Sequence record: AJ697969.1
Direction: 5' to 3' (one strand)
DNA: 64,000 nucleotides
Source: Pseudomonas phage EL
Program-made: the position numbers and the translations under genes
Shown here: one piece after another, positions 3,284 through 50,170 of the stretch
How the letters are laid out: every line of letters begins with the position of its first letter
How positions within the stretch are numbered: the stretch's first letter is position 1
Notes under the pieces: generated by a model
Told to the model about the DNA's origin: nothing
Databases searched by the model: none
Seen by the model: the letters and a program-made list of their open reading frames with translations, nothing else

Positions 3284-5452
3284 TCAGGCCGCAGTAGTGG
3301 CCAGATCCTGTTGGTTGTAAGCGTAGAGATCGAATTCCATCATGTACTTGGCTTTGTTAAACCAAGCGTGGAGAATCACACGCAGTTTCGCACGGGATCC
3401 GAGCGTTCCAGTTTCGTAGAACGTTTCTGCGACGATGTTGGAGACTTCACCCCCTACTGCGTTACGGCACGCGCTCTCGATCTCGTCTTTCATGATGGAG
3501 GCGTAGTTATCTGCGGTGATGGTACGGTCACCACAAACGATGCGCCATTGATCCGCGGAGATCTTCTCCATCGCCACGCACAGGAACGGGTTAGCCAGGT
3601 CCTTGAGGACCGAGTCGGGGTTCGGGTGAATGGTGGGGAGGCCCGGACGGTACGTTTGAACGTTCCAGTCCCAAGGCTTCAGGGAGATATGGCCGTTGCT
3701 GAAGTTCTCAGCCGCCACTTCATCTTCTTCGAAGACGATGTTGGGGGAGTGCATCAGACGGAGTTTACGGTTATCCGCATGATCCGGTGCGTTCGGAGTG
3801 ACGATCAAACCGTCGATGTTACCTGCCCACAGCGCAAAGGCATAGGCCAGGTCGATGTTACCCGAGAAGTACCAGCCGGTCGGTTCATCGGTGACTTTCG
3901 CTTCGATGAGGTTCACAGCTGCACGGCAGGCTGGGGTACCCCACTTCTCAGACTCGACCGTCATGCGCAGTCGATTGGTGATCATTGCAGCCCGAGAATA
4001 GATCTCTTCGAGACTGTTCTTCTCACCCGGTCTCCAGACACAGGCGTCTGCCACAACCAGAATGTCCTTACGGGCACCCAGGAACTGTTCGGCGATATCT
4101 TTTACTTCTTGGGAATAACCAATATCCCAGAAGATCGATTGACGGTTACGGGTGGTGTCTTTCATTTCCACACCATTCACGTAACTGGTCAGATCCGCCA
4201 CCATCAGTTTGTTGGTGATTTCCCACGCCTGAAGGTGAGTGAGAGGACGCTCGGTGTTAGTCAGCAGACCAAAGGGATCGTTGACTGTCGGCTTGGTAAC
4301 GTAATCAGGTACCTTACCGTCCTTATCCAGGAACGGCGAAATACCGCCCGAGGATTTAATAGCGCCGCTCAGGTCCCACTTGATAACACCCGAGGTGGTG
4401 ATGGCGTAGTAAGGCGCGCCGTTGTGGTTGGTGCAGGTGAACGGGTTCATCTGCTTGTAGTACTCACCGGGAACACCGACTTCTACCAGGGTATCATTTT
4501 CCGGCTGTTCCACCACATACATCATCTGACACAGGGTGTCGATGTTGTCCTGGTAAACGACCAGGTCGTTGAACGGAGCCGGAACCGGGTTACCCGGGGC
4601 GTTCTTGTTACGACCAGTAAAGGAGCCGAAACCCGTTTGCAGGCTGTACTGAACGCCGTTGAGGGACACCGGGAACAGGGTGAACTTGGCACTTTCCTGT
4701 TGGAGGGTGGTTTTCGAATACACACGAGTCCCATCGACTCCATCGGTGAACTGACGGAGGTCGTAAGGGAAAGTCCCCGTGGACCGAACGAATTCGGAAA
4801 TGGAACGCCAATTCAGCGCGTCCGCACGGACACCCAGGTTAAGGCCCGACTTGTTGTATTCGTCACCGACACCAGCCACCCCTTCGAACAGGGGGAGTAC
4901 CAGGGTTTCAGGGGTATCACCACTGGCGGCGATGGTGCGGACTTCGAGCGCGCCGGGTTCTTTACCCGCTGCGGCATCATCGATTTTGATTTCGATGTTC
5001 AGACCGTTCGGGTAGGTTTTACCCGGGATCGGAATACGCTCGCCGTTTTCGTTATACTTCCAACGGCCGTTGGCATCTCGTTCGTAGGCCTGAACTTCCA
5101 CTTTCTGAACAAACGCAGAGAGCGAGGCTTTCGAGACCACTTCGTTGACCGAGAGGCGGCGAATGCCGATGGTATTCTGGCGACCCAGGGCGAGCGCCTG
5201 GATCAGGACCGACGTTGGGCCGTAGTAGGGCGACTTCTCGTCGAAAATGTCACCAAAGATCTTTTTGACGTCTTGGGGGGCTACCCATTGGGTGCCTGCT
5301 TTAGACGCCAGTTTTCCTTTGGGGAAGATACCGTGGATAACAGGAAGGTGGAGCGGGGTGGTTGGCGGGGACGTGTCATATTCTGGAATAGAGTTGTCCC
5401 GAATCCCACTAATGTCCACCTTTCCAGGGACGATTCTGTTGAAAACAGTCAT
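3284..5452 (-). CDS. large virion structural protein candidate (722 aa; e.g. tail sheath or capsid class)
   Basis: ORF with highly optimised codon usage; start chosen at MTVFNRIV (ATG complement at 5450..5452) because GAGG lies 6 nt upstream on the minus strand. The longer ORF to 5539 has no RBS. Confidence 0.55.
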   Translation of the reverse strand: MTVFNRIVPGKVDISGIRDNSIPEYDTSPPTTPLHLPVIHGIFPKGKLASKAGTQWVAPQDVKKIFGDIFDEKSPYYGPTSVLIQALALGRQNTIGIRRLSVNEVVSKASLSAFVQKVEVQAYERDANGRWKYNENGERIPIPGKTYPNGLNIEIKIDDAAAGKEPGALEVRTIAASGDTPETLVLPLFEGVAGVGDEYNKSGLNLGVRADALNWRSISEFVRSTGTFPYDLRQFTDGVDGTRVYSKTTLQQESAKFTLFPVSLNGVQYSLQTGFGSFTGRNKNAPGNPVPAPFNDLVVYQDNIDTLCQMMYVVEQPENDTLVEVGVPGEYYKQMNPFTCTNHNGAPYYAITTSGVIKWDLSGAIKSSGGISPFLDKDGKVPDYVTKPTVNDPFGLLTNTERPLTHLQAWEITNKLMVADLTSYVNGVEMKDTTRNRQSIFWDIGYSQEVKDIAEQFLGARKDILVVADACVWRPGEKNSLEEIYSRAAMITNRLRMTVESEKWGTPACRAAVNLIEAKVTDEPTGWYFSGNIDLAYAFALWAGNIDGLIVTPNAPDHADNRKLRLMHSPNIVFEEDEVAAENFSNGHISLKPWDWNVQTYRPGLPTIHPNPDSVLKDLANPFLCVAMEKISADQWRIVCGDRTITADNYASIMKDEIESACRNAVGGEVSNIVAETFYETGTLGSRAKLRVILHAWFNKAKYMMEFDLYAYNQQDLATTAA

Positions 5453-11077: not shown

Positions 11078-14000
11078 ATGACAGACGAACAAGACACATC
11101 CCTTTCCTATGCTAAATGGTTGGTTAAGTACCTGAGATGCAACAACCTGCCCAAAGAACTGATCGATGATAAACGCCTCCGTATTGATTGGGAGGCTCGA
11201 ACAGACGATGAAACCCTTTTAGCTCACTTCAATGAAGACAGCTTAAGTGGTATTAAGACTGTTCGTTTTCTCAAGGACTTTTTCAACTACCAAGCGGGTT
11301 ATGATCGGGAGACCCGGAATACCAGTTTCCTCAGAACCACCGAAGTGTTCAGGCAACAGGGGATCAATAACTTTTACTTCATCCTCCAATTGAACAATCC
11401 CCTGTTGAAAGGGGTGGATCCCTTTGATCCTAACCTCACTCCTGAGCAACAGGTGTGGGTCCTGGAGGAGTGTCGGAGTAACTTTTGGTACTTCCTACGG
11501 GAAGTTTGCCGGTTAAAGCCGAATCAGCCCTTCTTAGCGAACCGGGGGAATATCAGCTTTATTTGGTCGTATTTGAATCACATTACCACCTACATGATCA
11601 TGCCGCGGCAACAGGGTAAGCAGCAGCGGAACAGTGCTAAGGTTCGTATTGTGCCTAAGGATACCCTGAAGACTATTACCCCTCAGGATACTTGGAAACG
11701 GATTGAACACCTACGGGTGGGGGATCAAGTCCTGGACCGTTCCGGGAAGCCGTGTCAGGTGATTGGCATTCATCCCCAGGGTAAACGCCGGTTGTATCGC
11801 GTCATTACCAGTGACGGACGAGCCACGGATGTAGGGACTGAACATCTGTGGACCTTGAAGGATTATTCCAACTGCCTCAATGGACGTGCACTCTGGAATG
11901 ACTATTCGACCGTTGATGTCATTAACCTGTTGAAGAAGAAGGTTAAACTTCAATTGCCGTTACCGGCTCCGGTACCCGGGAGTGAACAGGACCTACCTAT
12001 TGACCCGTACGTTCTCGGGTTGATCTATTGCGGACAAGATCAAGACGGTAAGGTTATTATCCCCACGCGTACGGATGCGGTTAAACAGTACGTAGTTGAT
12101 CATCTCCCTCGGGGGGTAACAGTTATTCAGGGAGTGGCTAACAGTTGCTTAGAACGGACTGATAACCAACCTTATTTATTCAACAGGGAACACGGTTTAC
12201 CGGATCAATACCTAGAAGCCCCTTTAAACGCCCGGAGAGACCTCTTACAGGCGTTTTTAGACGTTAGGGGTAAGGTTGGTAGGGGTAAGGTCTTTATAGC
12301 CTTAAATCGCGTCCTAGGAGGTCAACTGGCGTATTTAGCCCGTAGTCTAGGTGGAACCGGTAAAGTCACCAAGAACGGAGTAGAGATTACCCTACCGGAA
12401 GAGGTGCCTCCGTTCAAGTTCAGGGAAGAGAATGTCGTCTTTGATAATCGGTTGCTGATCGAGCGGGTGACTTTCGTAGGGGATGACGATTGTACCTGTA
12501 TTGAAGTCGATAACAGTGAACAGTTGTATTTGACCGATGACTTCATTGTGACCCACAACACGGTATCGGTTCAGGTGATTGACTTCTGGTTAACGTACAT
12601 CATGGGCCGGGGGTATACGAGCCACTTGATTACCTTGAAGTCGGATAACCGAGCTCAGTTCATTGCGGCTATTAAGCAGATACGGAGTTCCATTCCCTCG
12701 TATTTGATTAACTCGACCTACAAGGACAAGGATGCTGGTACCAGTCTGACCTACAAGGCCTTTGGGGAAGATAACGTTAATACGCTGTACATTAACGTCC
12801 CTCAGATCAGTCAGGATGCAGCAGGGGATCTCGGTCGGGGGTTACGGGTAGGGACTACCAACTACGATGAGTCCGGGTATATTCGGTTCATCGACACCAT
12901 CATTGACGGGTGTTCCCCGTCCTCGCTAACGGAAATGGCGTTGTGCAGAGAGCAGGGGTTGCCGTATGGGATTACGCACATTACGACCCCCAATACCACG
13001 CTCCATCCCAGCGGGGAGTTTATGTTCAATAAACTCATGAGTGCAACGGAGTGGCGGGAGAAGTTCTTTGATTGCTTCAGTGAGAGTCACTTGAGGCAGA
13101 TGTTACTCAGGGCTTCCCCTACGAAGACAACCTCTCCGTCAGTCTCCATGGTGTACAATTACCTTCAACTGGGTAAGGACAAAGCCTGGGTGCGGGAAAC
13201 CATTGACCTGCTAGGATTGAGTTTGGCGAAAGCCAAGATCGACTTATTGCTCATGTGGGTGGAAGATGGGGAGAATCGGTTGTTTGACGATGTGACCCGG
13301 GAAGCCATTAACAACATGAAGCGGGACGTGGTGTGGAGTAAGGAGTATCGGGACTGTAACCTGTACGTGGACTTCTTTGTGACCCAACAGGAATTGTTGG
13401 AGATGGCAAAGAAGGAGTACAATGACCATTTCCTGATTGGTGTGGATACGTCCTCAGCCATTAACAAGGATGCCTGCACCATTGTGATTCGCAGTATGAA
13501 GACGGGTAAGGTCATTGGGGTGGGACGATATCCCTTAACCTTCTTGGATGATGTCACAGCCATTGTTGTGGATTTGCTGGACGTGATTCAGAACAGCACC
13601 TTGATCATAGAGCGTAACTACGCACATCACATGATCGACAGTCTGTTGATTATGCTGCCGGCTAAGGGTATGGATCCCTTTAAACGGGTCTTTAACCAAA
13701 TCTACCAAGACACCGTCAATAACGCCAAGGAGTTTGAGGAAGTCCAGAACACCAAATTTGCTTACCGGAATAAAGCGTTCTACCTGAAGTATAAACAATA
13801 CTTCGGGTTCGTGACGACCAAGACCACTCGGGACGTCCTGTACGGCCTCATCCAAGAGGCGGTTGGGAATACCGGGTACGGCCTCTGTTATGCGAAGCTC
13901 GCGGATGAATTGATCAACCTGAAACTCAAGGGGGATCGAATCGACCACGATGCGAAGCAGCACGATGACTTGGTCATTGCGTGGCTACTGAGCTACTGGT

Positions 14001-14344
14001 TCATTAAGCTCGGGGAGAACAAGTCCTTGTACGGGATCCCTCCGGGGATTGCCTTAACGGACACCCGTAACCTACTGAACTCTGCTCAGAACCAAGGACG
14101 AACCGAGTATGAGCCGTACGTGGTTCAACTCATCGATAAAGTCCGGAGTAAGGTTCACAGCCTAACTGAAGAACTGATGAGCACCCAGGACAATATCTTA
14201 GCACTTCGTCTAGAGGTGGAGATTCGGAAGTTAGCCAAGATGTTGCCTCCGGAACAGAATCGCATGATGACCATTGACGTGCTGTTGGAGAACGCTAAAG
14301 TGGAACGCAACAAACGCCTACTGCAACAACGCAGAACAGCATAA
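11078..14344 (+). CDS. terL: terminase large subunit, interrupted by an in-frame intein
   Basis: Extein N-part ends ...MPRQQGK and C-part resumes TVSVQVIDFW, reconstituting a T4 gp17-like Walker A (RQQGKT). The C-terminal region FLIGVDTSSAINKDACTIV ... HDDLVIAWLLSYW is the RNaseH-like terminase nuclease domain. Confidence 0.8.
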   Translation: MTDEQDTSLSYAKWLVKYLRCNNLPKELIDDKRLRIDWEARTDDETLLAHFNEDSLSGIKTVRFLKDFFNYQAGYDRETRNTSFLRTTEVFRQQGINNFYFILQLNNPLLKGVDPFDPNLTPEQQVWVLEECRSNFWYFLREVCRLKPNQPFLANRGNISFIWSYLNHITTYMIMPRQQGKQQRNSAKVRIVPKDTLKTITPQDTWKRIEHLRVGDQVLDRSGKPCQVIGIHPQGKRRLYRVITSDGRATDVGTEHLWTLKDYSNCLNGRALWNDYSTVDVINLLKKKVKLQLPLPAPVPGSEQDLPIDPYVLGLIYCGQDQDGKVIIPTRTDAVKQYVVDHLPRGVTVIQGVANSCLERTDNQPYLFNREHGLPDQYLEAPLNARRDLLQAFLDVRGKVGRGKVFIALNRVLGGQLAYLARSLGGTGKVTKNGVEITLPEEVPPFKFREENVVFDNRLLIERVTFVGDDDCTCIEVDNSEQLYLTDDFIVTHNTVSVQVIDFWLTYIMGRGYTSHLITLKSDNRAQFIAAIKQIRSSIPSYLINSTYKDKDAGTSLTYKAFGEDNVNTLYINVPQISQDAAGDLGRGLRVGTTNYDESGYIRFIDTIIDGCSPSSLTEMALCREQGLPYGITHITTPNTTLHPSGEFMFNKLMSATEWREKFFDCFSESHLRQMLLRASPTKTTSPSVSMVYNYLQLGKDKAWVRETIDLLGLSLAKAKIDLLLMWVEDGENRLFDDVTREAINNMKRDVVWSKEYRDCNLYVDFFVTQQELLEMAKKEYNDHFLIGVDTSSAINKDACTIVIRSMKTGKVIGVGRYPLTFLDDVTAIVVDLLDVIQNSTLIIERNYAHHMIDSLLIMLPAKGMDPFKRVFNQIYQDTVNNAKEFEEVQNTKFAYRNKAFYLKYKQYFGFVTTKTTRDVLYGLIQEAVGNTGYGLCYAKLADELINLKLKGDRIDHDAKQHDDLVIAWLLSYWFIKLGENKSLYGIPPGIALTDTRNLLNSAQNQGRTEYEPYVVQLIDKVRSKVHSLTEELMSTQDNILALRLEVEIRKLAKMLPPEQNRMMTIDVLLENAKVERNKRLLQQRRTA
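11621..12559 (+). mobile_element. intein with LAGLIDADG-type homing endonuclease remnant, inserted in the terminase P-loop after GK
   Basis: ends ...LYLTDDFIVTHN with +1 Thr; internal HPQGKRRLYRV...DGRATDVGTEHLW Hint block; LGLIYCGQDQDG and LLQAFLDVRGKV LAGLIDADG-like blocks; first residue Gln (non-nucleophilic). Confidence 0.65.
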
Positions 14345-28225: not shown

Positions 28226-29668
28226 ATGGAACTACCTGAACTGACTCCGAGTCTTTCGTTGGCCATTAAACGGTTAACGGAATACAGTGAAGAAGTGCTG
28301 GATCCCCTTAAGGACTTTGTCGGCTACGCCAGTAAGCTGGATTTTTCCTTGGAGGATGATCCTCGGTTCTCGATGCCGGCCTATCCCGATTTTGAAGACT
28401 ACGACTACCTGCACGATACCAGCCGTCTTAAGCAAGTCTACCTGAATGACTTCGATTTCAATCTGGAAGAAGACCGAGAAGCCCTCAGTCGTTTAACCCG
28501 GATGGAGTTTGAGGGTAATTCGTTTGATACCGTTGCGCGGTGTTTGTGTAAGGACGGCAAGGGACTCCGGGGTAACTACCTCCTGGGTACCGAACGGGTG
28601 TGTCCACGGTGTGGGAGTAAAGCAGAACTCTTCTTGGATCAAGGGGAAGACACCCGGATCTGGCTCAAATGCCCCGAAGGGGTGAAGAAGTTCGTTAATA
28701 TCGGGTTCTTTACGACCTTCTTTAACAATATCAGCATAGGAAACCCGTCCCCCAAGATCAATGTACCGCGTTACTTCATTGATCCTCTGTATCGAACCAA
28801 GGTTAAGAAGCAACGGAATGGAACCCTCATTGCCATTAACCAGATGCTCGGTGACTTGGAGATCCACCATGTCGACCTGAACACGTTCTATGATCACTGT
28901 GATCGGATCATGGAATACATTCTGGTAGGTCCAGGTGAGCGCTGGTCGAAGTACCGGGGAGGGGAAGGTGCTGAGATCCTGGAACTGTATCATCGGTATA
29001 AACACATCGCGTTCTGTAATTACATGAAGGTACCCAGTCGGTACTGCATGGTGCTGGAACGGGTGGGTAAAGAAGTCCGGAGTTATGAGCATCAGCCTGA
29101 AACAGCGAAGCTCTATAACGCCATTGCGGATACCATGAAGTCCAGCAATTGTTATCAGCTCACTGAAAAGGACTTGCAACGCAATGTGGACATTGTGGGT
29201 AAGAACCTGGTGGCGTTAGCTGATCAATTCAGGAGTGTCAATAACCCCAAAGCCGTGTTTAATAAACACGGGATCAACCGTAAGCATGTGTGCGCAGGTC
29301 CGGTGCCATTAACGGGACGGTCGGTGATTACCTCTCAAACGGGTATTATTAATCACTCTGAAGTGATTATGCCGTGGAAGATGGTCGTTACCATCCTGGA
29401 ACAACCCATTACGAACCACCTCTATCGGTTAGGGCATACCCCCCGGAGTGCCCGTAAGCTGATCTATAACGCGGCCTATCGGATCGTTCCAGAAATCGAT
29501 GCGTTCTTACGGCGTGCGGAGGAGAGTCGTAAAGTCCTGGTTCAAATGGGGCGTAACCCCTCGATTGAGTACCTCAGTCGGCGCACCAATTACCTGAGGG
29601 TGAACCGGGATCTGGAAGATGAGAGTATTAAGATCCCCATTACTTCAGTCGGTCCTTACAATGCTTAA
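28226..29668 (+). CDS. RNA polymerase beta' subunit, N-terminal part (exon 1), ending exactly at ...YNA of the NADFDGD catalytic motif
   Basis: RCLCKDGKGLRG...VCPRCGS matches the beta' N-terminal zinc ribbon (E. coli ECLCGKYKRLKHRG..ICEKCGV); C-terminal ESIKIPITSVGPYNA aligns to KAIQLHPLVCAAYNA(DFDGD). Confidence 0.65.
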   Translation: MELPELTPSLSLAIKRLTEYSEEVLDPLKDFVGYASKLDFSLEDDPRFSMPAYPDFEDYDYLHDTSRLKQVYLNDFDFNLEEDREALSRLTRMEFEGNSFDTVARCLCKDGKGLRGNYLLGTERVCPRCGSKAELFLDQGEDTRIWLKCPEGVKKFVNIGFFTTFFNNISIGNPSPKINVPRYFIDPLYRTKVKKQRNGTLIAINQMLGDLEIHHVDLNTFYDHCDRIMEYILVGPGERWSKYRGGEGAEILELYHRYKHIAFCNYMKVPSRYCMVLERVGKEVRSYEHQPETAKLYNAIADTMKSSNCYQLTEKDLQRNVDIVGKNLVALADQFRSVNNPKAVFNKHGINRKHVCAGPVPLTGRSVITSQTGIINHSEVIMPWKMVVTILEQPITNHLYRLGHTPRSARKLIYNAAYRIVPEIDAFLRRAEESRKVLVQMGRNPSIEYLSRRTNYLRVNRDLEDESIKIPITSVGPYNA

Positions 29669-31082
29669 CAATGATTACCCTATTCCTCTACCAGGAGGAA
29701 TTCGTGCAGATAGAAAGGATATACACAACTCCTATTGAACATCCAGAGGAAGTTGGGTTTTATAAACATCCAACATTGCCGATTTGGTTGTCTAAAGACG
29801 ACGATCGGATCCTCACAGAAACAGGTTTCGTGGAACCAAGCATAGGCGGCGAATACAAGTACTACATTCGTCAGCACCTCCATGTGTTGAAACTAGAGAC
29901 ATTTCTTGAGAAGCCCAGCTCAACTATCAAGTTGTGGGGGAATCACAGGGATGGCGACAAGCGCAATAATCACCTGGAAAACTTGGAGTGGTGTACTCCG
30001 TCAATGAATTTGATCCATGCGTTTAAGACCGGTCTTAGGTCGGATAACCTTCCCGGTTTACTCACCGATCTAGAAACAGGTGAGGTCAAATCATTTACGA
30101 GTTTAAGGGAATGCGCTACCTACTTAGGTATCAATCCTGGTACACTCACTGTTTACATGAAATCTGATAGAAAGTATCCGCTCAAGTTTAAGTACTCTGT
30201 GCGTCTAATATCGGAAGAGCCTAGCAAACTGACTGCTGACGACATTGGTAAAGTAAGGAAGGGTGGACCCAAACCTTGCAAGATCGTCAATAAACTCACT
30301 GGCGAAATAAAGCATCTGGCCTTTGAGAAAAGCATTCAGGAACTGTTCGGTTTATCTGAGAGACGTTATCAGCGTGCTTTGAAAGAACGTGGATACGAAG
30401 ACTGGATTTTCGAAGAAGTGAAGACGTATGAAGAATACGTCGAGTGTTTAAAGGATGATAAGGCGAAGACTGTAAAGTCTAACCGACATCTTTCTTTAGT
30501 CAAGGAAAAACAGTTGGCTACAGCTAAGAAGATTGTGGTTACTAACAATCTGACAGGCGAAATAACTGAATTCGACAATCTTAGTGACTTCTCAATGGAG
30601 AATGGTTTCATGATAAGCGAGATCAACCGCGCTTTGAAAACCAAAGATTCATGGAGAGAATTCACATTTAAATATCTGGAATAGGGTAATTGTTAAAGGC
30701 TCACCAGGCACGAAAGTCCTGGATGAGAATCTCTTTAATTGCTGGAACACCCACAAAAGTGAACCACCTTACGTAACCGTAAGGGGACGAAAGTCAGAAA
30801 CAACGGTTCACCTGTCCTACGCTAACCAATAACGCTAAGGGATACTGACAAGGGGCAACCAGCAGCGAAGCCTGTTGTTATTCAACAGGAACGTTCAACG
30901 GCCATTCGATGACCCGTAATCTGATTACGGCGAGAAGTAGGGTAGCAAGCTAATGGCACCCGAAACAGGAGACACCTAATCCCTAACCGGGAATGGTGAT
31001 GATATGGTCTGACCACGGTTTAATAGACCGTGCAGGTGTCTGTGCACACCGGGTAATGAGTAGCGTCATTACTGGACAAGTG
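29669..31082 (+). mobile_element. putative self-splicing group I intron carrying an HNH homing endonuclease ORF, inserted inside the beta' NADFDGD codons
   Basis: 5' exon ends in U (gcT); the proposed intron ends in G immediately before gat ttt gat ggt gat (DFDGD); the 3' ~400 nt (30685..31082) is non-coding and full of GNRA (GAAA) tetraloop hairpins and nested stems; HEG has divergent AT-rich codon usage. Confidence 0.5.
29671..30684 (+). CDS. HNH homing endonuclease with C-terminal NUMOD-like DNA-binding repeats
   Basis: WGNHRDGDKRNNHLENLEWCTPSMN is a classic phage HNH motif (H-N-H with invariant Asn); three helix-turn-helix-like repeats (ECATYLGINPGTLTVYM, ELFGLSERRYQRALKERG, MENGFMISEINRALKT); codon usage distinct from neighbours. 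Confidence 0.75.
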   Translation: MITLFLYQEEFVQIERIYTTPIEHPEEVGFYKHPTLPIWLSKDDDRILTETGFVEPSIGGEYKYYIRQHLHVLKLETFLEKPSSTIKLWGNHRDGDKRNNHLENLEWCTPSMNLIHAFKTGLRSDNLPGLLTDLETGEVKSFTSLRECATYLGINPGTLTVYMKSDRKYPLKFKYSVRLISEEPSKLTADDIGKVRKGGPKPCKIVNKLTGEIKHLAFEKSIQELFGLSERRYQRALKERGYEDWIFEEVKTYEEYVECLKDDKAKTVKSNRHLSLVKEKQLATAKKIVVTNNLTGEITEFDNLSDFSMENGFMISEINRALKTKDSWREFTFKYLE

Positions 31083-40630: not shown

Positions 40631-41044
40631 GTATTTTTACGCTTGGGTCGTATTACTACGTGCAACGGCCTGGGTCAAATGGGCCTCGTCAATTATCTTG
40701 TAACTTTGCATGCCCGCACAATCCATAAAGGGATCTTCAATCCCATTCAGATAGGCGGTGACCCACAGCATATGGTTTTCAACCCCTTGAACCCTCAGGA
40801 ACCGATAGAAGTCATACCGATAGGCATACAGTTGTGCGTGAGAGACGATTGGAATCTCCTGGGTTTGACGGAGGAGTATTTCCCGTTCGGACCGCACCAA
40901 GACTTTGAACCGTTCAGTAAAGAAGAAATCACGTCCTTCACTGAAGTTAACAATAGACAGTGGCATGGAGAAGATCCTTATCGATGCAGCTAACCATTTT
41001 TGAACCTATATTATTTCTGTGACCCGACATAAGGAATTATCCCA

Positions 41045-42187
41045 ATGGAATACTTAACGACCCAACGAAGTCGATTGTATCCCAACCTGGATACTCGTCT
41101 GGTATTAAACAAAACCATAGGGTGTTCACGTTTCATATGGAACGCTCTACTGGGTAATCATAAGGAAGAATACGGTCTTTGGGTAGAGGATCCAGAAACT
41201 CATCCTAAACCGAGTTGTTCTTTAAGTTCCTTTAATCAAAAGCTGAACGAACTTAAAGTTGAATACCCCTGGTTAAATGAGGTCAGTTCTGTTGCTTTAC
41301 AACAAACAGTTCTTCATTTAACCAAGGCTTTTAGTGAGTTCTTCCAGGGTATTCATGGTTATCCAAAATTTAAATCTAAACGAGATCCCGGTGGATTTAA
41401 CCTCAGTAGTGCAGCGGGAACTTTAGCCAAGGACGGCAAGATTCGAATCCCCAAGATAAAGGGATACACCACCTGTCGACCTAAGCTCCCGTTGGATCAG
41501 GAAATTAGGAACTACAGCATTGTCAAAGACCGGGTTGGGAATTACTTTGTCAATTGCTTAGTAACTAAACCTTGTCTACCGAATACGGCTAAAGGTCAAG
41601 GACTGGTGGGGGTTGATCTGGGGATTAAATCCTTAGCGGTGGCGAAGCGGTCTACAGGTGAAATCTTTACCTTGGAGAATCCTCGAACCTACATGAAGTA
41701 CCACCGTAGACGTGTACGACTTCAACGGCGATTAGCCAAGAAACAGAAAGGGAGTCAAAACCGTAATAAAGCTAGAATTAAACTGGCCAAACTAGAACGT
41801 AAGGTCGGCAATATTCGCAAGAACACCCTGGATACCTTCACCTCTAAACTGATTAGCGAAAACCAAGTAATCAGTATTGAGGATTTGAATGTTAAAGGGA
41901 TGCTGAAAAACAGCCGGTTGGCTAAGCATATCCAAGACTGTGGATTTAGCACCCTCCGGAGGATGTTGGAACACAAGGCTAAACGGTATGAATCACCGGT
42001 TATTATTAGCCTGGTCCATCGATTTTACCCCAGCACCCAGTGTTGTTCAGCGTGTGGTATTAAACGTGAGATCAAACTGACCCTTAATGACCGGGAATGG
42101 ACCTGCGCTGAATGCGGGACCTCTCACGACAGAGACATCAATGCTGCAACGAATATCCTGTATGAAGGACTTCGGTTAGTGGTCTGA
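41045..42187 (+). CDS. tnpB: IS200/IS605-family TnpB (OrfB) RNA-guided nuclease
   Basis: RuvC-I GVDLGIKSLAV, RuvC-II VISIEDLNVKGM, zinc finger CCSACG...CAECG, RuvC-III HDRDINAATNI; 380 aa; AT-rich codon usage unlike the flanking phage genes. Confidence 0.85.
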   Translation: MEYLTTQRSRLYPNLDTRLVLNKTIGCSRFIWNALLGNHKEEYGLWVEDPETHPKPSCSLSSFNQKLNELKVEYPWLNEVSSVALQQTVLHLTKAFSEFFQGIHGYPKFKSKRDPGGFNLSSAAGTLAKDGKIRIPKIKGYTTCRPKLPLDQEIRNYSIVKDRVGNYFVNCLVTKPCLPNTAKGQGLVGVDLGIKSLAVAKRSTGEIFTLENPRTYMKYHRRRVRLQRRLAKKQKGSQNRNKARIKLAKLERKVGNIRKNTLDTFTSKLISENQVISIEDLNVKGMLKNSRLAKHIQDCGFSTLRRMLEHKAKRYESPVIISLVHRFYPSTQCCSACGIKREIKLTLNDREWTCAECGTSHDRDINAATNILYEGLRLVV

Positions 42188-42361
42188 TAGAAAATTTACT
42201 CTTTGGAGTAACTACCGAAGCCTACTCGGGATGTTAAGCCTGTGGAGCATCAGTGCGGTTAAGCTGAGCAATGAAGCAGGAAGTTTGAGGTTAAAACATT
42301 GGGATAAAGACAGTCTTAACTCATTATTGAAAAGACTGCTGTTGACTGTAATGGAGCCGTT
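42188..42361 (+). ncRNA. candidate TnpB omega-RNA (reRNA) / IS right end
   Basis: 174-nt non-coding tail immediately 3' of tnpB with several hairpins (e.g. CAGTCTT...AAGACTG); position matches where omega-RNA scaffolds of TnpB elements lie. Boundaries not determined. Confidence 0.3.
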
Positions 42362-44668
42362 ATGAGTAAAGAAAAATTGAATCAGGACCTGAAAGGTGTA
42401 AGTAGTGAGATCCGTGCCGCACTGGGTGCAGAGGATACGGATCTTACCCCTGACAGTGCAGCGGGTCAATTCCTCCAGGAAGTCCGTTACAAGTATCCCT
42501 GCGGGGAGAATCAAATCCATCCTGCTTTAGTGGGTGTCAGCAGTAACCTGATTCTCTTCCCGCACGAAGCCTCCGCGGGTCGTCTCTATATGGCGGGTAA
42601 CATGATCCCTAAATCCGTGCCGACCGAAGGAGCGGGTGAACGGATGATGGTAACCGGGTACGAATTTGAGGAACATTACGGTGGAACGGCTCGTAAGGTC
42701 GAAGCCCCTGCGAATATGCTGGTGGAAGAGATCTTCTTCGTTCAGAGTCTGGTTCCGGGTAAGGATACGGATGACTGGAATTCGATTTACGTGGTCTTTA
42801 AGAACGACGAACAGAACGCCTACGACCTTCTGGAGCTACCTCGGTATAACACCCATAACCACTACGTTGGGTTCGAATATAAATACGATAAAGAGAAACT
42901 CCGTAAGCTCCGTAAAGGTGCCACTTTCGCTAAAGGGACCGTCTTCGCTAAGAGTCCCCGTATCAGTGAGAATGGGGAATGGTGTTTTGCAATGCCGACC
43001 TTGGTAGCCGCCTATTCGGACCAAAGGACTGAGGAGGATGGCGTGCTTATCACCCGTTCCTATGCGGAACGTTCGGCTTGTATGTTCAAGCACGAGTTCA
43101 GCTATGAATGGAATGAGGATGAATGGATTCCTCTGATGCTGTACGGAACGGACGAGAACCCCCAACCGCTCCCTGAGTCGGGTGATAACATCCGTGAGGA
43201 TGGGATCGTCATGGGCTTCCGTCGCCGCATCAAAGAGAACGCGCTGGTTTCCCTGACCAAGAAGTCCCTACGAGAACCGGATCTGGTGTACGACAAGTTG
43301 TTCTATGCGCCGGTGGATGCGGTTGTGATGTCAGTCACTGTTCGGTCGGATCGGATGAAGAACCGGTCCAATAACCGGGGAACGGATTACATCGAACAAC
43401 ACCACAATGCCATGCTGGACCGCTATGAGAAACGCCAGAATGAAATGTGGAACAATGTGATCCGGTGGTACGAAGGGAAGATCGCTGCCAACCGCGGGGA
43501 AGACATTCCCATTACCTTTGACCTCGATACCTTCATTCGGAACGCGTATGGTAACTATACCCGCAATGGGTTGGGTCGTATTAACCCGTTGGCCCGAGTG
43601 GAACGGTGGGATAAACTGAAAGATTGGAACGTGACCATCGAACTGAAGGAACGGGTCAAAGGTCGTGTTAAATTCAAGTACGCGGGTTTGAACGGTGACA
43701 AAGGGGTGTGTGTACGGGTCATTGAAGACGACGAAGCTCCCACCTATCCGGATGGGACTCGGGCGGAGTTCATTAAAGATAACGTACCGGCGTTCCGTCG
43801 CCAGATCTTTTCGTTGCTCATGGAACTGAGTATCAACTATGTGAACATGAACGTTCAACGGGAAGTCAGACACCTACGGCTACAAGGGGATTATGAAGGC
43901 GCTTTCCAGGCGTTGATGACGTTCTATGAAACCGGTTTCCCTGAATTCAGTGAATTGGTTGCTCATGCGTTGGTTACGGAGGAGGAGAAACGTGAGCACG
44001 TCGACGATGTCTGTCGCCGGAAGATTTCCGTGCATGTGGTCAGTAACACGAAGTTGTATGGCGTGAACCTGATCAACGCCCTGCGTCGTCAATACCCGTA
44101 TAAGCCGCAGAAAGCCATTATCGTGAACGCACTGGGAGAACGGGTGGAAACCGAGAACCCTATCCTTATCAGCTGTCAGGACATTATGCTCCTGGATAAG
44201 TTTGGTACGGACATGAGTGCGCAGAGTATGCCGAAGGCTAACCTCTTTGGTATGCCAGCGAAGATGAACGAAGGCAGTAAATACGCCACCCCCATGAAAG
44301 ACAGTAATAACAAGAATACCGGTGAAACCGAAGGCCGGTTGCAAGTCAGTCACGCGGGCGGGCAGGAAATGATCAAGCAACTGGCTCTGGCGTATTCCCC
44401 CGAGAACCAGAAAAAAGCCTCCCAACGGGTTATTCGTGCGGATGATCCGTTTGAGATTCCTCGGTTGATTAAACCGGAGGAGTATTTGGGGAATCGGGCG
44501 TTGAAAATGGCGGTGGGAATGTTGTCGGATTCGGGTTATCGGCTGCGAGCTGAACTACCCAGTGATCGTCGGGAATATCCAACCTTTAACATGGATGAAA
44601 TCCCAGGGTTAGATGACGAGACCTTGAAGCAGCTTCAGTCATCCGAGAAACCCACTCAAGAACCTTAA
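42362..44668 (+). CDS. multisubunit RNA polymerase beta subunit, C-terminal half (separate polypeptide)
   Basis: [27 protein letters not shown] ~ [39 protein letters not shown] ~ [30 protein letters not shown] ~ FGGQRFGEMEVWALEAYGA. Confidence 0.7.
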   Translation: [768 protein letters not shown]

Positions 44669-44707: not shown

Positions 44708-47700
44708 ATGGTAATGAAGATCAAACTCCGTGAATGGGCTAATTTACCAGAAGAAACTGTTCTCCGTTGGTTAAACACCCGCCGGTGGGTGGAGGTCACG
44801 GATGACCTGGACCAAGTCGCTCTAACGGATACCTACGCTCTGATCATTACCTGGCATGGAATGATCATCCACCGGCATTATAACGATGTCCCCTATTCCA
44901 TTAAGGAGATGGTACCCAGTAACAAGGTGGAAGGGGGTGAAGACACCGTCTATAACGATGGAACCAACGCGACGCCTATTAACCAGTTCTTAAAGGTCAT
45001 TCTTCCTACGATTATTGACCCGGTGGAAGTGGACGGGATTAAACGGCTTATTCATATCTGGCAGAATAAGCTGAATAACCTGCTGGTGGTGATGAGTGAA
45101 CGTTACGTTATTTCAGCCACCGCTGAATCCGTAGCGGAGTTCATGGAAGATGAAGGGATCTCTGGAATACGGGACCGTGTCCTGAGCAAGGAGATTTCAA
45201 TTGATGAGGGTGAGCGGGAGTTTGCGGATTATGTCCGGACCGCTCATTCCATTGCCAACAACACCCTCACCCTGCTGTCGCGTACGGGCGGGGTGGCCAT
45301 TAACCAGGCGTATCAGAAGACGATCATCCGGGGTAAAGTCTTTGACCTGAACAACTCGATCATGCCGAATGCGATTACGGTTCCGTATGCGCATGGGATT
45401 ACCAACCTGGCTGATATGCTGGGTGAACGGAATGCAGCAGGTAAAGCCGGGGTTTTGTCTTCAAAGATAAAAATCCCTGGTGGATGGAAGACCATGGGTA
45501 ACATCCGGGTGGGTGATGAAGTCGTTACACCCGATGGAGGTACCGCTAAGGTGCTGGCAGTTCACCCACAAGGTGTAACCAAGGTTGTACGGGTGCACTT
45601 CAAAGACGGTCGATATACTGACGTTAGTCCAGATCACCTGTGGAAGGTTAGACGTCATCATTGGTGCAACGATAAAGCCATGGCTAAACTCACTCGGGAG
45701 GAAGTGGAAGAACGTGTATGGCGAGTCATCACCACCAATGAGTTGAAAGACTATATTGGTCTGTCAACTAAGGTATACGTCCAACTGATTGAACCTGAAA
45801 GAAATGCCGATAAACCCTTCAAAATTCACCCGTATGTGCTCGGTGTCTTGTTGGGGGATGGATGCATTAGTCAAAAGGCTGTGGATATCACCAAACCTTA
45901 TCAACAGCTATTCGATAAGGTCCAATCGCTATTGCCAGAACATTTGGAATGTGTTTGGCGACCCAACCGTAAAGGTGATGGAGAACCTAAAACGTTTGGG
46001 ATCCGTTTTAAAGATCGTCGGTCCGAACAGCACATCAACTGGCATATCCGTGATGGCCTGAAGGAACTGGGCTTGTATGGAATGCGGTCGTGGGGAAAAG
46101 TCATTCCCGAAGAATATCTTCACGGATCGGCTAAACAACGTTTGGAGCTCCTCCAAGGACTGTTGGACACAGACGGAACTGTGGACAAACACAAATCGGT
46201 TAGCTTTAGCTCTTCGTCTAAGTTACTCTCCCTCGGAGTGCAATACTTGGTCAGAAGCCTAGGGGGGATGGCACGTCTCCAAGAACGTACTCCCCACTAC
46301 ACCCACAATGGAGAAAAAAGGGAAGGTCGTACGGACTATCGGGTTTATATCCGATACCCTCGACCAGAAGAACTCTTCACCCTAGACCACAAACGGGAAC
46401 GTGCGGTCTCGCACCAGCATACGGAAACCCTGAGACTGCAAGTAACTCATATTGAAGAACGTCCTGATGAGGAGACACAATGCATTACGATCGATCATCC
46501 TGATCATCTGTACATTACAGACGACTTCATTGTCACCCACAACAGCCTAACCAATAACGGCAAGGCCCTGAAATCATCGGAATGGTTCCACCGGAAGGTA
46601 CACATCCTGTCCGCTGTGGTGGCGGATATCGATCATTTCATGGACTGTGGAACGACCACTACAGTGCCGATCCGAATTCCCAATATGCAAGCGGCAATGG
46701 CACTGTTGGGTAAATTCAGGGTAACCGATACAGGAGAATTAGAACTCATTGATCAAACCACGGTGTGGTCAATTAAGCCAGGGGAGTGGGTTAATATTCG
46801 TAGTGTGGCCTTCTGTAATCACTACAATAGTGCTTCACCCTGCCGGGTATGCTACGGGATGATGGCGAGCTCTATCCCGTATAACGTGATGATGAAGAAA
46901 GGGGCTGATGTCGGGATGTGGTGTACCACCTCGATCTGTAACCCCATCGGCCAGGGAATGCTCTCCACCAAGCATTTCATTAGGAATGCAACGACCCGTA
47001 AGTTCGTTCCTGCGACTAAGGATAAGAACGTTATCTATTCCAATGGTGACGATATTTTCCTGACTAAGGAACTCTGTGCACCGGGCACTGAATTGGTGCT
47101 CAAAGCCGATATTGTAAACATCCTCTCGGATATCCGTTCCTTGGATGTTCTGGACAACTTGAGCCTGGATAAACTCCCGTACTTCTCTGAAGTCACATTC
47201 CGCTATGAAGTCGAAGACATCATGATGGGGGGTAAAACCCTCCAGCAGCATGCGGCTTGTACCTCGGTGTCGTCTCGGAATGCCCGGTTCTCGTTGGAGT
47301 TCCTGAACTATCTCCTGAGTAAAGGTTGGGCGAACGAAGGTAAGAAACATATTACCGTTGATTTGAGTGAATGGAATACGCTCAGTCCTATCTTCACACT
47401 GCCGTATGTTCGTGAAGACTTGGACATGCACCGGGCTCGGGTAGAGAACTTCATCACGTTCAATAAACGCAATAACGCCTGGAGACAGCAGATCGTTACA
47501 CCCCGTCTCTTTGGTGAGGTCTTAGCGGAATACTGGGGATTGATCAACCAGGAAACGAAAGGGATTAACATCATCCATCCTGAGGTCTTGCTCTATTCCA
47601 CGTTGTGTCGGGATCCCATGCGCGGGGATTATTCCCTGGCGAATGGTAAAGGACCTAAGTATTTCGTGAACTTCCAGGAGTGTATCAAAGGCAGGGGGGC

Positions 47701-47818
47701 GGGTATGCTCATGATCTACGAGAACCAGCAAAATGTGCTAAGTGATCCTAAGACATTCCGTGTGGTAAACCGTCAGGGGAGTCCGCTGGAGTGCTTCTTT
47801 AGCTTAGCGGTGAGTTGA
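44708..47818 (+). CDS. multisubunit RNA polymerase beta' subunit, C-terminal part, interrupted by an intein in the bridge helix
   Basis: after in-silico splicing, [28 protein letters not shown] ~ [28 protein letters not shown] (bridge helix); [21 protein letters not shown] ~ [45 protein letters not shown] ~ [25 protein letters not shown] (trigger loop). Confidence 0.75.
   Translation: [1036 protein letters not shown]
45446..46543 (+). mobile_element. intein with full LAGLIDADG homing endonuclease, inserted after GK in the beta' bridge helix
   Basis: starts [17 protein letters not shown] (Ala1), Hint block [39 protein letters not shown] motifs [13 protein letters not shown] and [12 protein letters not shown], ends [12 protein letters not shown] with +1 Ser. 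Confidence 0.7.
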
Positions 47819-47881: not shown

Positions 47882-50170
47882 TTGATTATGCGAGCAACAG
47901 CAACTATCAGCAAAGCGAATCATTACTTCAGAATCAACGGGTTCTATGAGGAATTCGCGGTTCGGGTAATCCTACCGTTTTGTAAACTGAATCTCTGCAA
48001 GATGGCTAAGAAGCCAATACCGGGTACCCGGAAGCAGGCGTGGTTTGTTCAACACGTCTTTGCTCGGTCGAATTATGACAAGAGTGAATACCGGCTACCC
48101 ATTGAAACCCTTAAAGAGTTTGTGGAATTTGCGGGCTACCGGGGGTATAAAGAATCCCGCTTGAAGATTCAGGATGAACCGGAGATCGAAGGCAAGGATG
48201 TTGTATTCGAATTCAATCCAGGGTTTGATCAGTTCAGGGAAGGTCAAGGTGAATGGATTGAGTACATGCTGAGCGATGGGCACCTGAAGGTCAATAACGC
48301 CTCCACAGGCTTTGGGAAGATGCAACCGCTGTACGCGAAGATCAAAGTCCCGGGTGGTTGGAAGACAATGAGGGAGATGACCGTCGGTACCGAGGTCATT
48401 GCAGCGGATGGTACGGTCACTCAGGTGACTGGTGTTTACCCACACGGTAAACAACCCATTTACCGTTTGCACTTCGAAGACGGGCGTTATACCGATGCAG
48501 GACTGGATCACCTGTGGAAAGTGTTCACAGAGGAGACTCAGGCATGGACAGTCGTTAATACCCGTTCCGTACAGACCCTGTTGGCGAAAGAGCCGGATGG
48601 GGTATTTATCCCTCTGTGTGAGCCTGAAGACGGTCCGGAGAAGCCCTTTGTAACGGACCAATTGGAAGGTTCCCGCCAACAACGGTTGGAACACCTACGA
48701 CGACTCATGGATGAGAAAGGGTATGTGCGTGATGACGGTAGTCTGTCCTTTTCCAGTGAGGATGAGGTGGAAAGCACTACGGTTCAATACCTGGTTAGGA
48801 GTCTAGGGGGTATTGCCCGAAAGGTACCGTCTACAGGACTGTACCGCCGCAGGCAATACCGGGTGTACATCAAGCACCCTCGTCCTGAGGAACTCTTTAC
48901 CCTGACGAATAAGGGTGGCTACCTGACATCAAAGTCGGGTAACCAGTCCCTTAAGCTCCGGGTGAACCGCATTGAATTCATTGGGGAACATGAAGCCCAG
49001 TGCATCTCTGTAGCACACCCGGATCGTCTGTACATCACGGATGACTTCATCGTCACCCACAACACCTATATGGCCATCCACAGCATGGTGAAGATTGGTA
49101 AACGGACCTTAATCACCATGCAACCCCGTTACCAGATCAATTGGGTACGGGAACTCAACAAGATCGTTAAACTCATTCCAGGGGATCTCTTAATCTGGGA
49201 GAATACCCTGGAATCGTTGTATGAGTGTTTAGAAGACGGGAAGTTTGATCCTAAGATCATTATTATTCCGATGTCTCGTATTGAGGTCTTCCTCCGTAAA
49301 GGGAAAGAGACCCGAGACGGGTTACACATGGATGATTTGATCAAACGGATCAATCCGGGATTAAGGATCATTGATGAAGGGCATGAAGCGATTCATCAGA
49401 TCTTCTTGTCCTTAATGTTTGGGAATATCAAGAAACTCTTCCTGCTCTCAGCCACCTTGAAAGCAGACGATCCCTTTACGAACAAGATGTACCAGTACTT
49501 GTTCCCTAAACGGTTACGGTTAAAGGAGGCGGAACCCGAGCATTACATCGATGTAGTGGCGTACCTGTATCGCCTCAACACCCGTCGTTATCATCTCAAG
49601 ACGGAGCAGTTTGGAGCGTATAACGATAAGACGTTTGAAAAGAGCATCTTAAAGTCGGGTGTACTCCTGGCATTCTACTTTAAATTGGTCAATAAGGCCT
49701 TTAAGGAGTATTACCTCAATGTGAGGCGTGAAGGAACGAAGTGTTTGTTCTTCTTCTCCAGGGTCAGTATGTGCGATGCCATGTTGGAACTGTTCAGGAA
49801 AGAATATCCCGGCTGGGATTTCGAAACCTTTACTGGGGACGATTCCAAGCTGAAAGATAAGAAGGACAAGTACTTAAAGCACGAGATCATCATTACAACT
49901 CCGAACAGTTGTGGAACAGGTAAGGATATCGGGGGGTTGGTGACGGTGATCTGCGCCCACACGGTTGCGTCGACTCAGGCTAATAAGCAGATCATTGGAC
50001 GACTCAGGGCGTTGTCGGGTAAGTTCAATAATGAGATCGACCCTGCCTTTGTGTTCCTGGTGTGTTTGGACTTAGCGAAGCACGTGGAATATTTAGCCAA
50101 ACGGGAACAGGTGTTCTTTGAGAAACAGAAGACCTTCAAGCGTATCAATTCGGAATGCTCCCTGGACTGA
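47882..50170 (+). CDS. SF2 DEAH-box helicase interrupted by a mini-intein in the Walker A P-loop
   Basis: extein junction [17 protein letters not shown] reconstitutes GxGKT; downstream IIDEGHEA (DEAH box); AAGAGG RBS. Confidence 0.7.
   Translation: [762 protein letters not shown]
48320..49063 (+). mobile_element. mini-intein (248 aa) with degenerate homing endonuclease, inserted after GK of the helicase P-loop
   Basis: starts [17 protein letters not shown] (Met1), Hint block [30 protein letters not shown], only the second LAGLIDADG half remains ([16 protein letters not shown]...[10 protein letters not shown]), ends [12 protein letters not shown] with +1 Thr. Confidence 0.65.

Follow-up and report, generated by a model that had tools for sequence, protein, structure and literature searches.

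This analysis concerns a stretch of 64,000 nucleotides (nt) from Pseudomonas phage EL (AJ697969.1; 'the window' below, meaning the whole of it) and, within it, the open reading frame (ORF) at 44708..47818 on the plus strand, which carries a long in-frame insert that we identify as an intein. The 1036-amino acid (aa) product is an exact match, by protein comparison, to the EL protein CAG27133.1/YP_418072.1; by our own count along the order of accessions the gene is EL ORF39. With the insert removed, the protein matches phiKZ gp74 (PHIKZ074, 7OGP_D; E=3.7e-30) and the β' chain of the non-virion RNA polymerase (RNAP) of AR9 (7S00_D; E=2.5e-6) in phmmer searches of the PDB, and the upstream ORF (42362..44668) matches phiKZ gp71-73 (7OGP_C, E=1.4e-39). 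This homology, taken with the phiKZ-like gene order, identifies the host enzyme as the non-virion RNAP (nvRNAP), and on the evidence of its sequence ORF39 is the β'-C-like subunit, the homolog of gp74; as an nvRNAP component, the subunit would not be visible in mass spectrometry of virions, and infected cells would be required.

The insert-free protein has the features of a β' C-terminal module: a bridge helix, a Zn site and a trigger helix. Working along the C-terminal part of the host protein (the 'C-extein'), the remainder of the bridge helix comes first, followed by the Zn-binding cysteines and the trigger helix. Cysteines 281, 337, 346 and 349 are invariant and correspond by alignment to the Zn site of gp74, whose ligands are described in the structure of phiKZ nvRNAP (PMC8287921). 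An AlphaFold2 (AF2) model of the insert-free protein, made from a 93-sequence alignment (predicted local distance difference test, pLDDT, 84.9), places a helix at residues 369–387 and a disordered tip after it, as expected of the trigger element. No RNAP domain is detected in the ORF39 product by the Pfam or NCBIfam libraries, the identification of both host protein and splicing domain resting on the PDB, PHROGs and structure.

The insert is 1098 nt long and encodes 366 aa in frame, running AGVLSSKIKIPGGW...DDFIVTHN between the flanks ...ERNAAGK and SLTNNGK.... The limits assigned to it in an earlier note on this DNA (45446..46543) are borne out by natural alleles that lack exactly these 366 residues: the gene of vB_PaeM_GXNNE2 (PV400809) is 2013 nt long, and its 670-aa product is the EL N-extein plus C-extein with only three substitutions, reading ...NAAGK|SLTNNGK... 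at the junction; GXNNA8 is identical. With such an intein-free allele in hand, the boundaries are exact. A further intein-free protein of 670 aa (P0031) is found in a Logan assembly, and 94 intein-free homologs run uninterrupted across the site, upholding the junction between AAGK and SLTNNGK that the note had proposed. By megablast, five further genomes of Elvirus (Chimalliviridae) contain the EL gene with 98% identity (IR-QUMS-PaBa1, phiRU, MIZ-Pa99, HHBS47_1 and HHBS8_1), and GXNNE2 and GXNNA8 cover only 65% of the query, split in two pieces; presence or absence of the intein differs between genomes that are ~98% identical. The DNA of GXNNE2 across the junction reads ...GCAGCGGGTAAG|AGCTTGACCAA..., a candidate substrate for the endonuclease, the intein-free target sequence being written ...GAATGCAGCGGGTAAGAGCTTGACCAATAAC...; the spliced protein is predicted to give the Glu-C junction peptide RNAAGKSLTNNGKALKSSE.

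Turning to the insert itself, its best sequence matches in the PDB (phmmer) are class 3 inteins from the DnaB of M. smegmatis (6BS8, E=1.3e-10) and from that of M. chimaera (6RIX/6RIY), followed by gp41-1 and, over the middle part, PI-SceI and PI-PfuI; 6BS8, 6RIX and 6RIZ are matched at both intein termini. The Pfam family LAGLIDADG_3 is found at protein residues 477–534 (E=3.3e-11), and both motifs quoted in the earlier note are present, each with its catalytic aspartate (LGVLLGD138G and LLQGLLDTD243G), within the α-β-β-α-β-β-α pseudo-dimer fold seen in PI-SceI, PI-PfuI and I-DmoI. An AF2 model built from 67 homologs (pLDDT 94.9; predicted template modelling score, pTM, 0.93) has PI-SceI as its top Foldseek match in the PDB (E=3e-16, TMq 0.69–0.73), with the TliVMA and PhoVMA inteins, PI-PfuI and I-DmoI also retrieved, as well as 6BS8 for the splicing domain (TMt 0.78). 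Blocks A, B, F and G of the HINT fold are all present, and the C-terminus reads ...IVTHN|S. Sequence and fold matches, both far stronger than chance would give, together make the insert a bipartite intein, in which a HINT domain is interrupted by a two-motif LAGLIDADG endonuclease; the note had likewise read it as an intein with both LAGLIDADG motifs.

What defines a class 3 intein is a non-nucleophilic residue 1, a Trp-Cys-Thr ('WCT') triplet at positions B:12/F:4/G:5 and a Ser or Thr at +1 (PMC2807308, PMC5050341), splicing being initiated by the Cys of block F (PMC2807308, PMC5050341, PMC7664689, PMC5222942). The EL insert has Ala1, His64, Trp66, Cys346, Thr364-His365-Asn366 and Ser+1; that is, a first residue that is non-nucleophilic, a complete triplet, and Ser rather than Cys at +1. 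With Ala1 the standard (class 1) first splicing step is impossible, which rules out a class 1 assignment for EL, and as the insert has a WCT triplet it does not match class 2 (KlbA-like). The triplet is kept in 9/9 phage inteins compared, whose mutual identity is only 28–59% and in which residue 1 (A, M, Q or S) and the penultimate residue (H, R or S) both vary. The location typical of the class, though no part of its definition, is the ATPase P-loop of a helicase or terminase, and the RNAP intein does not lie there. These residues make it a probable class 3 intein, a feature overlooked in the earlier note.

The bridge helix of phiKZ gp74 spans L242–Y279 in the published structure (PMC8287921). 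Alignment of EL to gp74 is ungapped, EL residue i corresponding to gp74 residue i+8, so the junction falls at gp74 K254|A255, 13 residues into a bridge helix of 36–38 residues; in the intein-free AF2 model a single continuous helix covers residues 234–269, and the junction is 246|247. At this point AR9 has the aligned segment GARK|ALITNYQQVRNSGYLTRK, which runs ungapped against E. coli β' 778–799, and hhalign with the family profile pairs EL SSEWFHRK with E. coli NSGYLTRR. The E. coli equivalent of the junction is then β' K781|G782, inside the bridge helix (773–806) and directly after residues that match the N-terminal hinge of the archaeal bridge helix (mjA' G809/G810; PMC2988716). As judged from these alignments and the model, the insert interrupts the bridge helix beside its N-terminal hinge. 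The earlier note had also placed the junction inside the helix, and the gp74, AF2 and E. coli comparisons agree with it in this; its E. coli register (Y795|L796) was in error by 14 residues, the true counterpart, K781|G782, lying upstream. The note's view that the polymerase is nonfunctional unless the insert is excised is a reasonable inference, considering where the insert lies, that the bridge helix is essential and that alleles without the intein exist.

We consider it probable, with good confidence, that the bridge helix of the EL nvRNAP houses a class 3 intein that is mobile and whose LAGLIDADG endonuclease is intact. Translation would give a 117.9-kDa precursor whose bridge helix is split after Lys246 by the 42.3-kDa intein, and which should be inactive, given the position of the insert beside the N-terminal hinge, in the active-centre cleft. 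Cys346 (F:4), activated by His64 and Trp66, would attack the Lys246–Ala1 bond to form a branched thioester; the N-extein would be transferred to the hydroxyl of Ser+1, cyclisation of Asn366 would free the intein, and an O-to-N acyl shift would leave ...NAAGK-SLTNNGK... in a 75.7-kDa subunit whose bridge helix is whole again. Once free, the intein would be expected to cleave alleles that lack it, that of GXNNE2 for example, at AAG|AGC during co-infection, with recombination then copying the intein in ('homing'). Its arrival would be explained by an ectopic jump from the helicase gene into the AGK|S of the bridge helix, the flanks of which are P-loop-like.

Saying this, several observations sit uneasily with the proposal. 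The splicing domain is recognised by neither Pfam nor NCBIfam. There is no clear co-conversion tract around the insert: four polymorphic synonymous sites lie ≤9 nt from the junction and none is fixed between intein-plus and intein-minus alleles. Of the six intein-bearing GenBank records, two (MIZ-Pa99 and HHBS8_1) have a frameshift inside the intein. The phiRU allele starts SQTLSS, with Ser1, as against AGVLSS, with Ala1, in EL. As to the proposed source, the inteins found at the RNAP site are 42–49% identical to each other versus 58–59% to helicase-site inteins, and the target DNAs of the RNAP and helicase sites agree at 20/60 nt (same genome background) or 27/60 nt (VB_ZK_P1), a modest similarity.

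The lack of a co-conversion tract favours the possibility that the intein splices but is immobile, its endonuclease inactive and its inheritance vertical, with intein-free alleles produced by rare precise deletions; the decayed endonuclease motifs of three relatives at the same RNAP site (P0049, P0064 and P0099) point the same way. The EL intein, however, has kept the full PI-SceI-like fold and both catalytic aspartates, unlike the helicase and terminase large subunit (TerL) inteins of the same genome (Table 1); among 67 database homologs, the aspartate of motif 1 is conserved in 62 and that of motif 2 in all. Presence/absence polymorphism among ~98%-identical genomes also argues against immobility, as do mosaic patches within the endonuclease domain, which indicate ongoing recombination between alleles. 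The replaced patches are short and in frame: in phiRU they comprise residues 1–4 (AGVL to SQTL) and an 8-residue block, 140–147, after motif 1 (L004 4739..4750 and 5155..5179), and in MIZ-Pa99 an 8-residue block (L002 ~5305..5330). From their sequence they look like recombination or gene conversion from other intein copies. A 6-nt indel (window 45963..45968) sets EL and phiRU apart from the other alleles. On balance we regard an immobile intein as unlikely, though the most serious of the alternatives. Co-conversion itself was dropped as a sign of recent homing, the flanking single-nucleotide polymorphisms not being strictly linked to intein presence.

The Ser1 of phiRU bears on a different question, the route by which splicing proceeds. 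A class 1-type start is possible for that allele, and more generally splicing might follow a non-class 3 route, in which Ser+1 attacks the N-terminal junction directly (class 2, KlbA-like) or, in Ser1 alleles like phiRU, a class 1 N–O acyl shift comes first; residue 1 is Ser in one database homolog and Cys in another, and Tori et al. (PMC2807308) noted WCT inteins starting with Ser or Cys as being of undetermined mechanism. Against this, residue 1 is Ala in EL and in 64/67 homologs (33–55% identical to the EL intein), and the WCT triplet, the defining mark of class 3 and one that class 2 lacks, is conserved throughout, Trp66 in 66/67 and both Cys346 and the Thr in 67/67; His64 and the terminal His and Asn are each likewise present in 67/67, and the +1 residue is always Thr (56) or Ser (11). 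In addition, Cys346 aligns with Cys118 of Msm DnaBi1, which is experimentally essential. Set beside class 3 splicing, such a route appears improbable.

Comparison of six Elvirus alleles gives 64 synonymous versus 12 non-synonymous codon changes in the exteins and, outside the three short replaced patches, ~14 versus 4–6 in the intein, the changes in the two halves of the splicing domain being nearly all synonymous. The recorded frameshifts, a 1-nt insertion in MIZ-Pa99 and a 1-nt deletion in an A6 run in HHBS8_1 (window equivalents ~45968 and 46314), leave the RNAP gene annotated as two or three coding sequences (CDS). Because the isolates are viable, the gene is present in a single copy and one of the shifts falls in a homopolymer, they are probably sequencing errors. 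If real, they would mean that the gene can be broken, and the shift in MIZ-Pa99 would resemble a split intein broken within its endonuclease domain; we considered a natural split intein for the two-CDS arrangement of that phage, and judged sequencing error the likelier explanation.

That the insert is no longer a working intein at all, either retained as a lineage-specific domain (large insertions of this kind being tolerated elsewhere in multisubunit RNAPs) or a dead element disabling its gene copy (as the frameshifts of MIZ-Pa99 and HHBS8_1 might suggest), is very hard to reconcile with splicing residues that are all intact, splicing-domain changes that are nearly all synonymous, insertion in the middle of the bridge helix rather than in a surface loop, one copy of the subunit gene per genome in the annotated phage collection, near-identical exteins that do without the insert, which thus adds nothing that the enzyme needs, and the viability of the frameshifted phages together with a homopolymer shift pointing to sequencing error.

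Where, then, might such an intein have come from? In 60/67 of the homologous inteins the residues at –2 and –1 are the GK of a Walker A motif (GxxGxGK|T/S), with PhoH, AAA, ABC, SNF2 and RecA proteins as hosts, in agreement with the published description of class 3-type inteins as residents of helicase-type proteins, mostly at the P-loop (PMC2807308). The EL RNAP site, AAGK|S, is not a P-loop, though the residues flanking it are P-loop-like. The intein's nearest relatives sit in helicases: 58% identity to that in gene 46 of Raoultella phage VB_ZK_P1, which has the same first six residues (AGVLSS), and 59% to that of L008, a 228-kb metagenomic contig, which begins AQTLSS; both helicase genes lie directly downstream of an intein-free β'-C gene. 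Of 94 intein-free β'-C homologs, 44 have K|S at the site, 28 have K|A and 22 have M/V/F|S. Ser is therefore widespread without an intein, and the permissive residue was already in place; the idea that Ser+1 is the scar of a lost intein was rejected, 66/94 intein-free homologs having Ser, some of them after M, V or F.

Going by these comparisons, the intein most likely moved ectopically from the P-loop of the neighbouring helicase into a look-alike sequence in the RNAP gene. As the identities give no clean clade, monophyly of the RNAP-site inteins is not supported; this and the modest similarity of the target DNAs suggest a reticulate history, of which a single jump is a simplification.

As to its spread, the annotated phage collection contains 256 records with a β'-C homolog; the RNAP-site intein is 96–99% identical in five Elvirus records, and a sixth, vB_PQ1, has a partial, 79%-identical match. 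In a large protein database, 4 of ~97 full-length homolog clusters carry the insert, all at the identical position: the EL type and three divergent metagenomic relatives with 52–61% extein identity and decayed endonuclease motifs, namely P0049 (AQPLYS...VTRN|S), P0064 (AQPLTS...VTSN|S) and P0099 (a mini-intein of 251 aa). All four combinations of presence and absence of the RNAP and helicase inteins occur, as expected from the homing cycle of inteins at an old site.

A helical insertion is seen in the N-terminal splicing domain at intein residues ~70–125 (window ~45653..45820; VRRHHWCND...LTREEVEERVW). It is found again in P0049, P0064 and VB_ZK_P1, is truncated in the mini-intein of P0099 and is absent from the EL and L008 helicase inteins. 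By analogy with PI-SceI it may be a DNA-recognition region, perhaps linked to the choice of target.

A doubtful but more consequential proposition is that the intein is something beyond a passenger. Its LAGLIDADG enzyme could serve as a weapon or gene drive, cutting the essential nvRNAP gene of an intein-free Elvirus that co-infects the cell and shares the phage nucleus, much as PhiKZ is attacked by the intron endonuclease of PhiPA3; and splicing could gate maturation of the nvRNAP, thereby controlling the switch from early to middle/late transcription, given that class 3 inteins depend on a reactive internal cysteine which, in mycobacterial DnaB, oxidants and zinc block reversibly. The same proposition would make this the first documented escape of the class 3 family into a non-NTPase active site, enabled by the sequence mimicry of AGK|S.

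The EL intein may be compared with several known systems. With the class 3 inteins of DnaB and terminases (MP-Be DnaB, Msm DnaBi1 6BS8, Mch DnaB1 6RIX) it shares a non-nucleophilic residue 1, the WCT triplet, a His-Asn end and a Ser/Thr at +1; those inteins, however, sit in ATPase P-loops whereas that of EL is in the RNAP bridge helix, a non-NTPase site, and the class 3 structures solved are of mini-inteins, whereas the EL RNAP intein has a full LAGLIDADG domain. The class 3 family is phage-associated (PMC2807308, PMC5050341), and all such inteins then known were in putative helicase-type proteins according to Tori et al. (PMC2807308). PI-SceI of yeast VMA1 and the archaeal VMA inteins and PI-PfuI have the same arrangement of a HINT domain interrupted by a two-motif LAGLIDADG domain with its catalytic Asp pair, but they are class 1 (Cys1), only ~15% identical to the EL intein, and hosted by V-ATPase or ribonucleotide reductase. 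The helicase-site inteins of VB_ZK_P1 and L008 are alike over their full length (58–59% identity), carry the same endonuclease and reside in the gene next downstream of β'-C, as does the helicase-site intein of EL ORF40; they differ in interrupting the Walker A motif GxGK|T of a superfamily 2 (SF2) helicase and not RNAP.

Catalytic subunits of multisubunit RNAPs are also interrupted by inteins in archaeal RpoA'/RpoA'' and in eukaryotic and viral RPB2/RPA2/RPC2, in other subunits and/or at other insertion sites than in EL. These other RNAP inteins, whether archaeal, eukaryotic or viral, are class 1 as far as is known. Bridge-helix studies number the M. jannaschii A' subunit as 'intein-free' (PMC2776397), and eukaryotic RNAP inteins are reported in the title of PMC1635734. 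Between the endonuclease region of the EL intein and the NCBIfam model for RpoA'', PRK14898.1, there is a weak similarity below the threshold (E=0.0054; 14.8 bits against a cutoff of 783), which suggests that this model includes an intein. A further parallel is PhiPA3 gp210, an intron-encoded HNH endonuclease in the RNAP gene of a jumbo phage that mediates competition between phages (PMC11620839). Both are self-splicing mobile elements with a homing endonuclease, in a conserved catalytic site of a Chimalliviridae RNAP gene, and polymorphic between co-infecting phages; PhiPA3 differs in having a group I intron that acts at the RNA level, a nicking HNH enzyme and the virion RNAP β subunit as its host, as opposed to an intein, a LAGLIDADG enzyme and non-virion β' in EL.

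The EL RNAP intein, almost certainly a functional one, belongs to a known and ordinary kind of mobile element; what is new is its insertion site. A full-text search of the literature, the coverage of which excluded the 2005 EL genome paper and InBase, found no account of an intein interrupting a phage RNAP, nor of one within a bridge helix, and the word intein is absent from a 2025 review of nucleus-forming phages. The EL sequence has been public since 2005, and the genome paper of that year reportedly associated LAGLIDADG endonucleases with inteins. InBase reportedly listed inteins as 'PhiEL ORF11/ORF39/ORF40/Helicase'; if this is right, the intein itself was on record, under an uninformative ORF name, before the protein that hosts it had been identified. 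Labels of the β'-C gene in GenBank and UniProt read 'terminase large subunit', 'LAGLIDADG family homing endonuclease' and 'putative ATP-dependent DNA helicase' (the last in UniProt); even the intein-free allele of GXNNE2 is labelled terminase large subunit and noted as 'intein-containing', and the helicase gene is labelled terminase too. We attribute the terminase and helicase labels of the RNAP gene to inteins, a case of systematic misannotation.

EL, phiRU and the other carriers form with GXNNE2 a natural intein-plus/intein-minus pair on the same host, which makes homing, marker exclusion, competition in the phage nucleus and splicing-dependent maturation testable. The RNAP site suggests that the host range of class 3 inteins is broader than ATPases, a local GK|S/T context being what is needed. 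As a tool for protein engineering, the intein could be of interest in that a helix-embedded Lys/Ser junction is tolerated and no N-terminal cysteine is required.

Table 1. Positions in the window of the RNAP gene parts, the intein and its predicted functional residues, and two further inteins
Feature	Position	Strand	Basis
N-extein coding part, aa 1–246	44708..45445	+	gp74/AR9 alignment, exact EL protein match
First 13 bridge-helix residues, LADMLGERNAAGK, end of N-extein	45407..45445	+	Alignment, AF2 helix 234–269
Intein, 366 aa, 42.3 kDa; predicted class 3 HINT domain split by LAGLIDADG domain	45446..46543	+	
Block B, His64-Leu65-Trp66	45635..45643	+	Aligned to H65/W67 of Msm DnaBi1
LAGLIDADG motif 1, LGVLLGDGC; catalytic Asp138 at 45857..45859	45839..45865	+	Sequence
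LAGLIDADG motif 2, LLQGLLDTDG; catalytic Asp243 at 46172..46174	46148..46177	+	Sequence, Pfam
Block F, Cys346 (F:4), predicted initiating nucleophile	46481..46483	+	Aligned to Cys118 of Msm DnaBi1 (6BS8)
Block G, Thr364-His365-Asn366, then Ser+1 (first C-extein residue)	46535..46546	+	Sequence
C-extein coding part, mature aa 247–670 plus stop codon	46544..47818	+	gp74/AR9 alignment
Remaining 23 bridge-helix residues, SLTNNGKALKSSEWFHRKVHILS, start of C-extein	46544..46612	+	Alignment
Class 3 intein, 248 aa, in Walker A GFGK|T of SF2 helicase ORF 47882..50170 (EL ORF40)	48320..49063	+	
More distant class 3 intein, 313 aa, in P-loop RQQGK|T of TerL ORF 11078..14344	11621..12559	+	

The window holds other mobile elements besides. 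The helicase intein is 49% identical to that of the RNAP gene and starts with Met; the WCT residues are kept, the first half of the LAGLIDADG domain is deleted and the second motif reads MDEKG, without a catalytic Asp. It is absent from GXNNE2, where the site reads STGFGK|TYMAIH in a helicase of 512 aa. The TerL intein was found through a tblastn match at 11693..12559; it starts with Gln, has degenerate LAGLIDADG motifs and is present in 7/7 Elvirus genomes, including those without the other two inteins, so that its N-terminal boundary, for which no intein-free allele was found among them, is an inferred one. EL-like genomes have four places similar to the RNAP intein, against three in the window, and a fourth related intein probably lies elsewhere in the EL-like genome.

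A group I intron (Rfam RF00028, 54.9 bits) has its core at 30681..31032, within 29671..31082, and is preceded by an ORF for an HNH-type endonuclease (29671..30684). Intron and HNH ORF lie between a homolog of phiKZ gp55 (ORF 28226..29668, ending ...GPYNA) and an ORF with DFDGDSMY, a location from which it follows that the intron splits the universal Mg-binding NADFDGD motif of β'; the nvRNAP genes of EL carry mobile elements in two catalytic hallmarks.

Finally, a TnpB/OrfB_IS605-family ORF is found at 41045..42187 (Pfam OrfB_IS605, 1.3e-22; Cas12f1-like TNB, 1.5e-20), in a segment of ~1.3 kb (~41018..42320) located ~40 nt upstream of the RNAP β-C gene. This segment, a recent insertion sequence polymorphism, occurs in EL, phiRU and IR-QUMS-PaBa1, whereas GXNNE2, MIZ-Pa99, HHBS47_1 and HHBS8_1 lack it cleanly.

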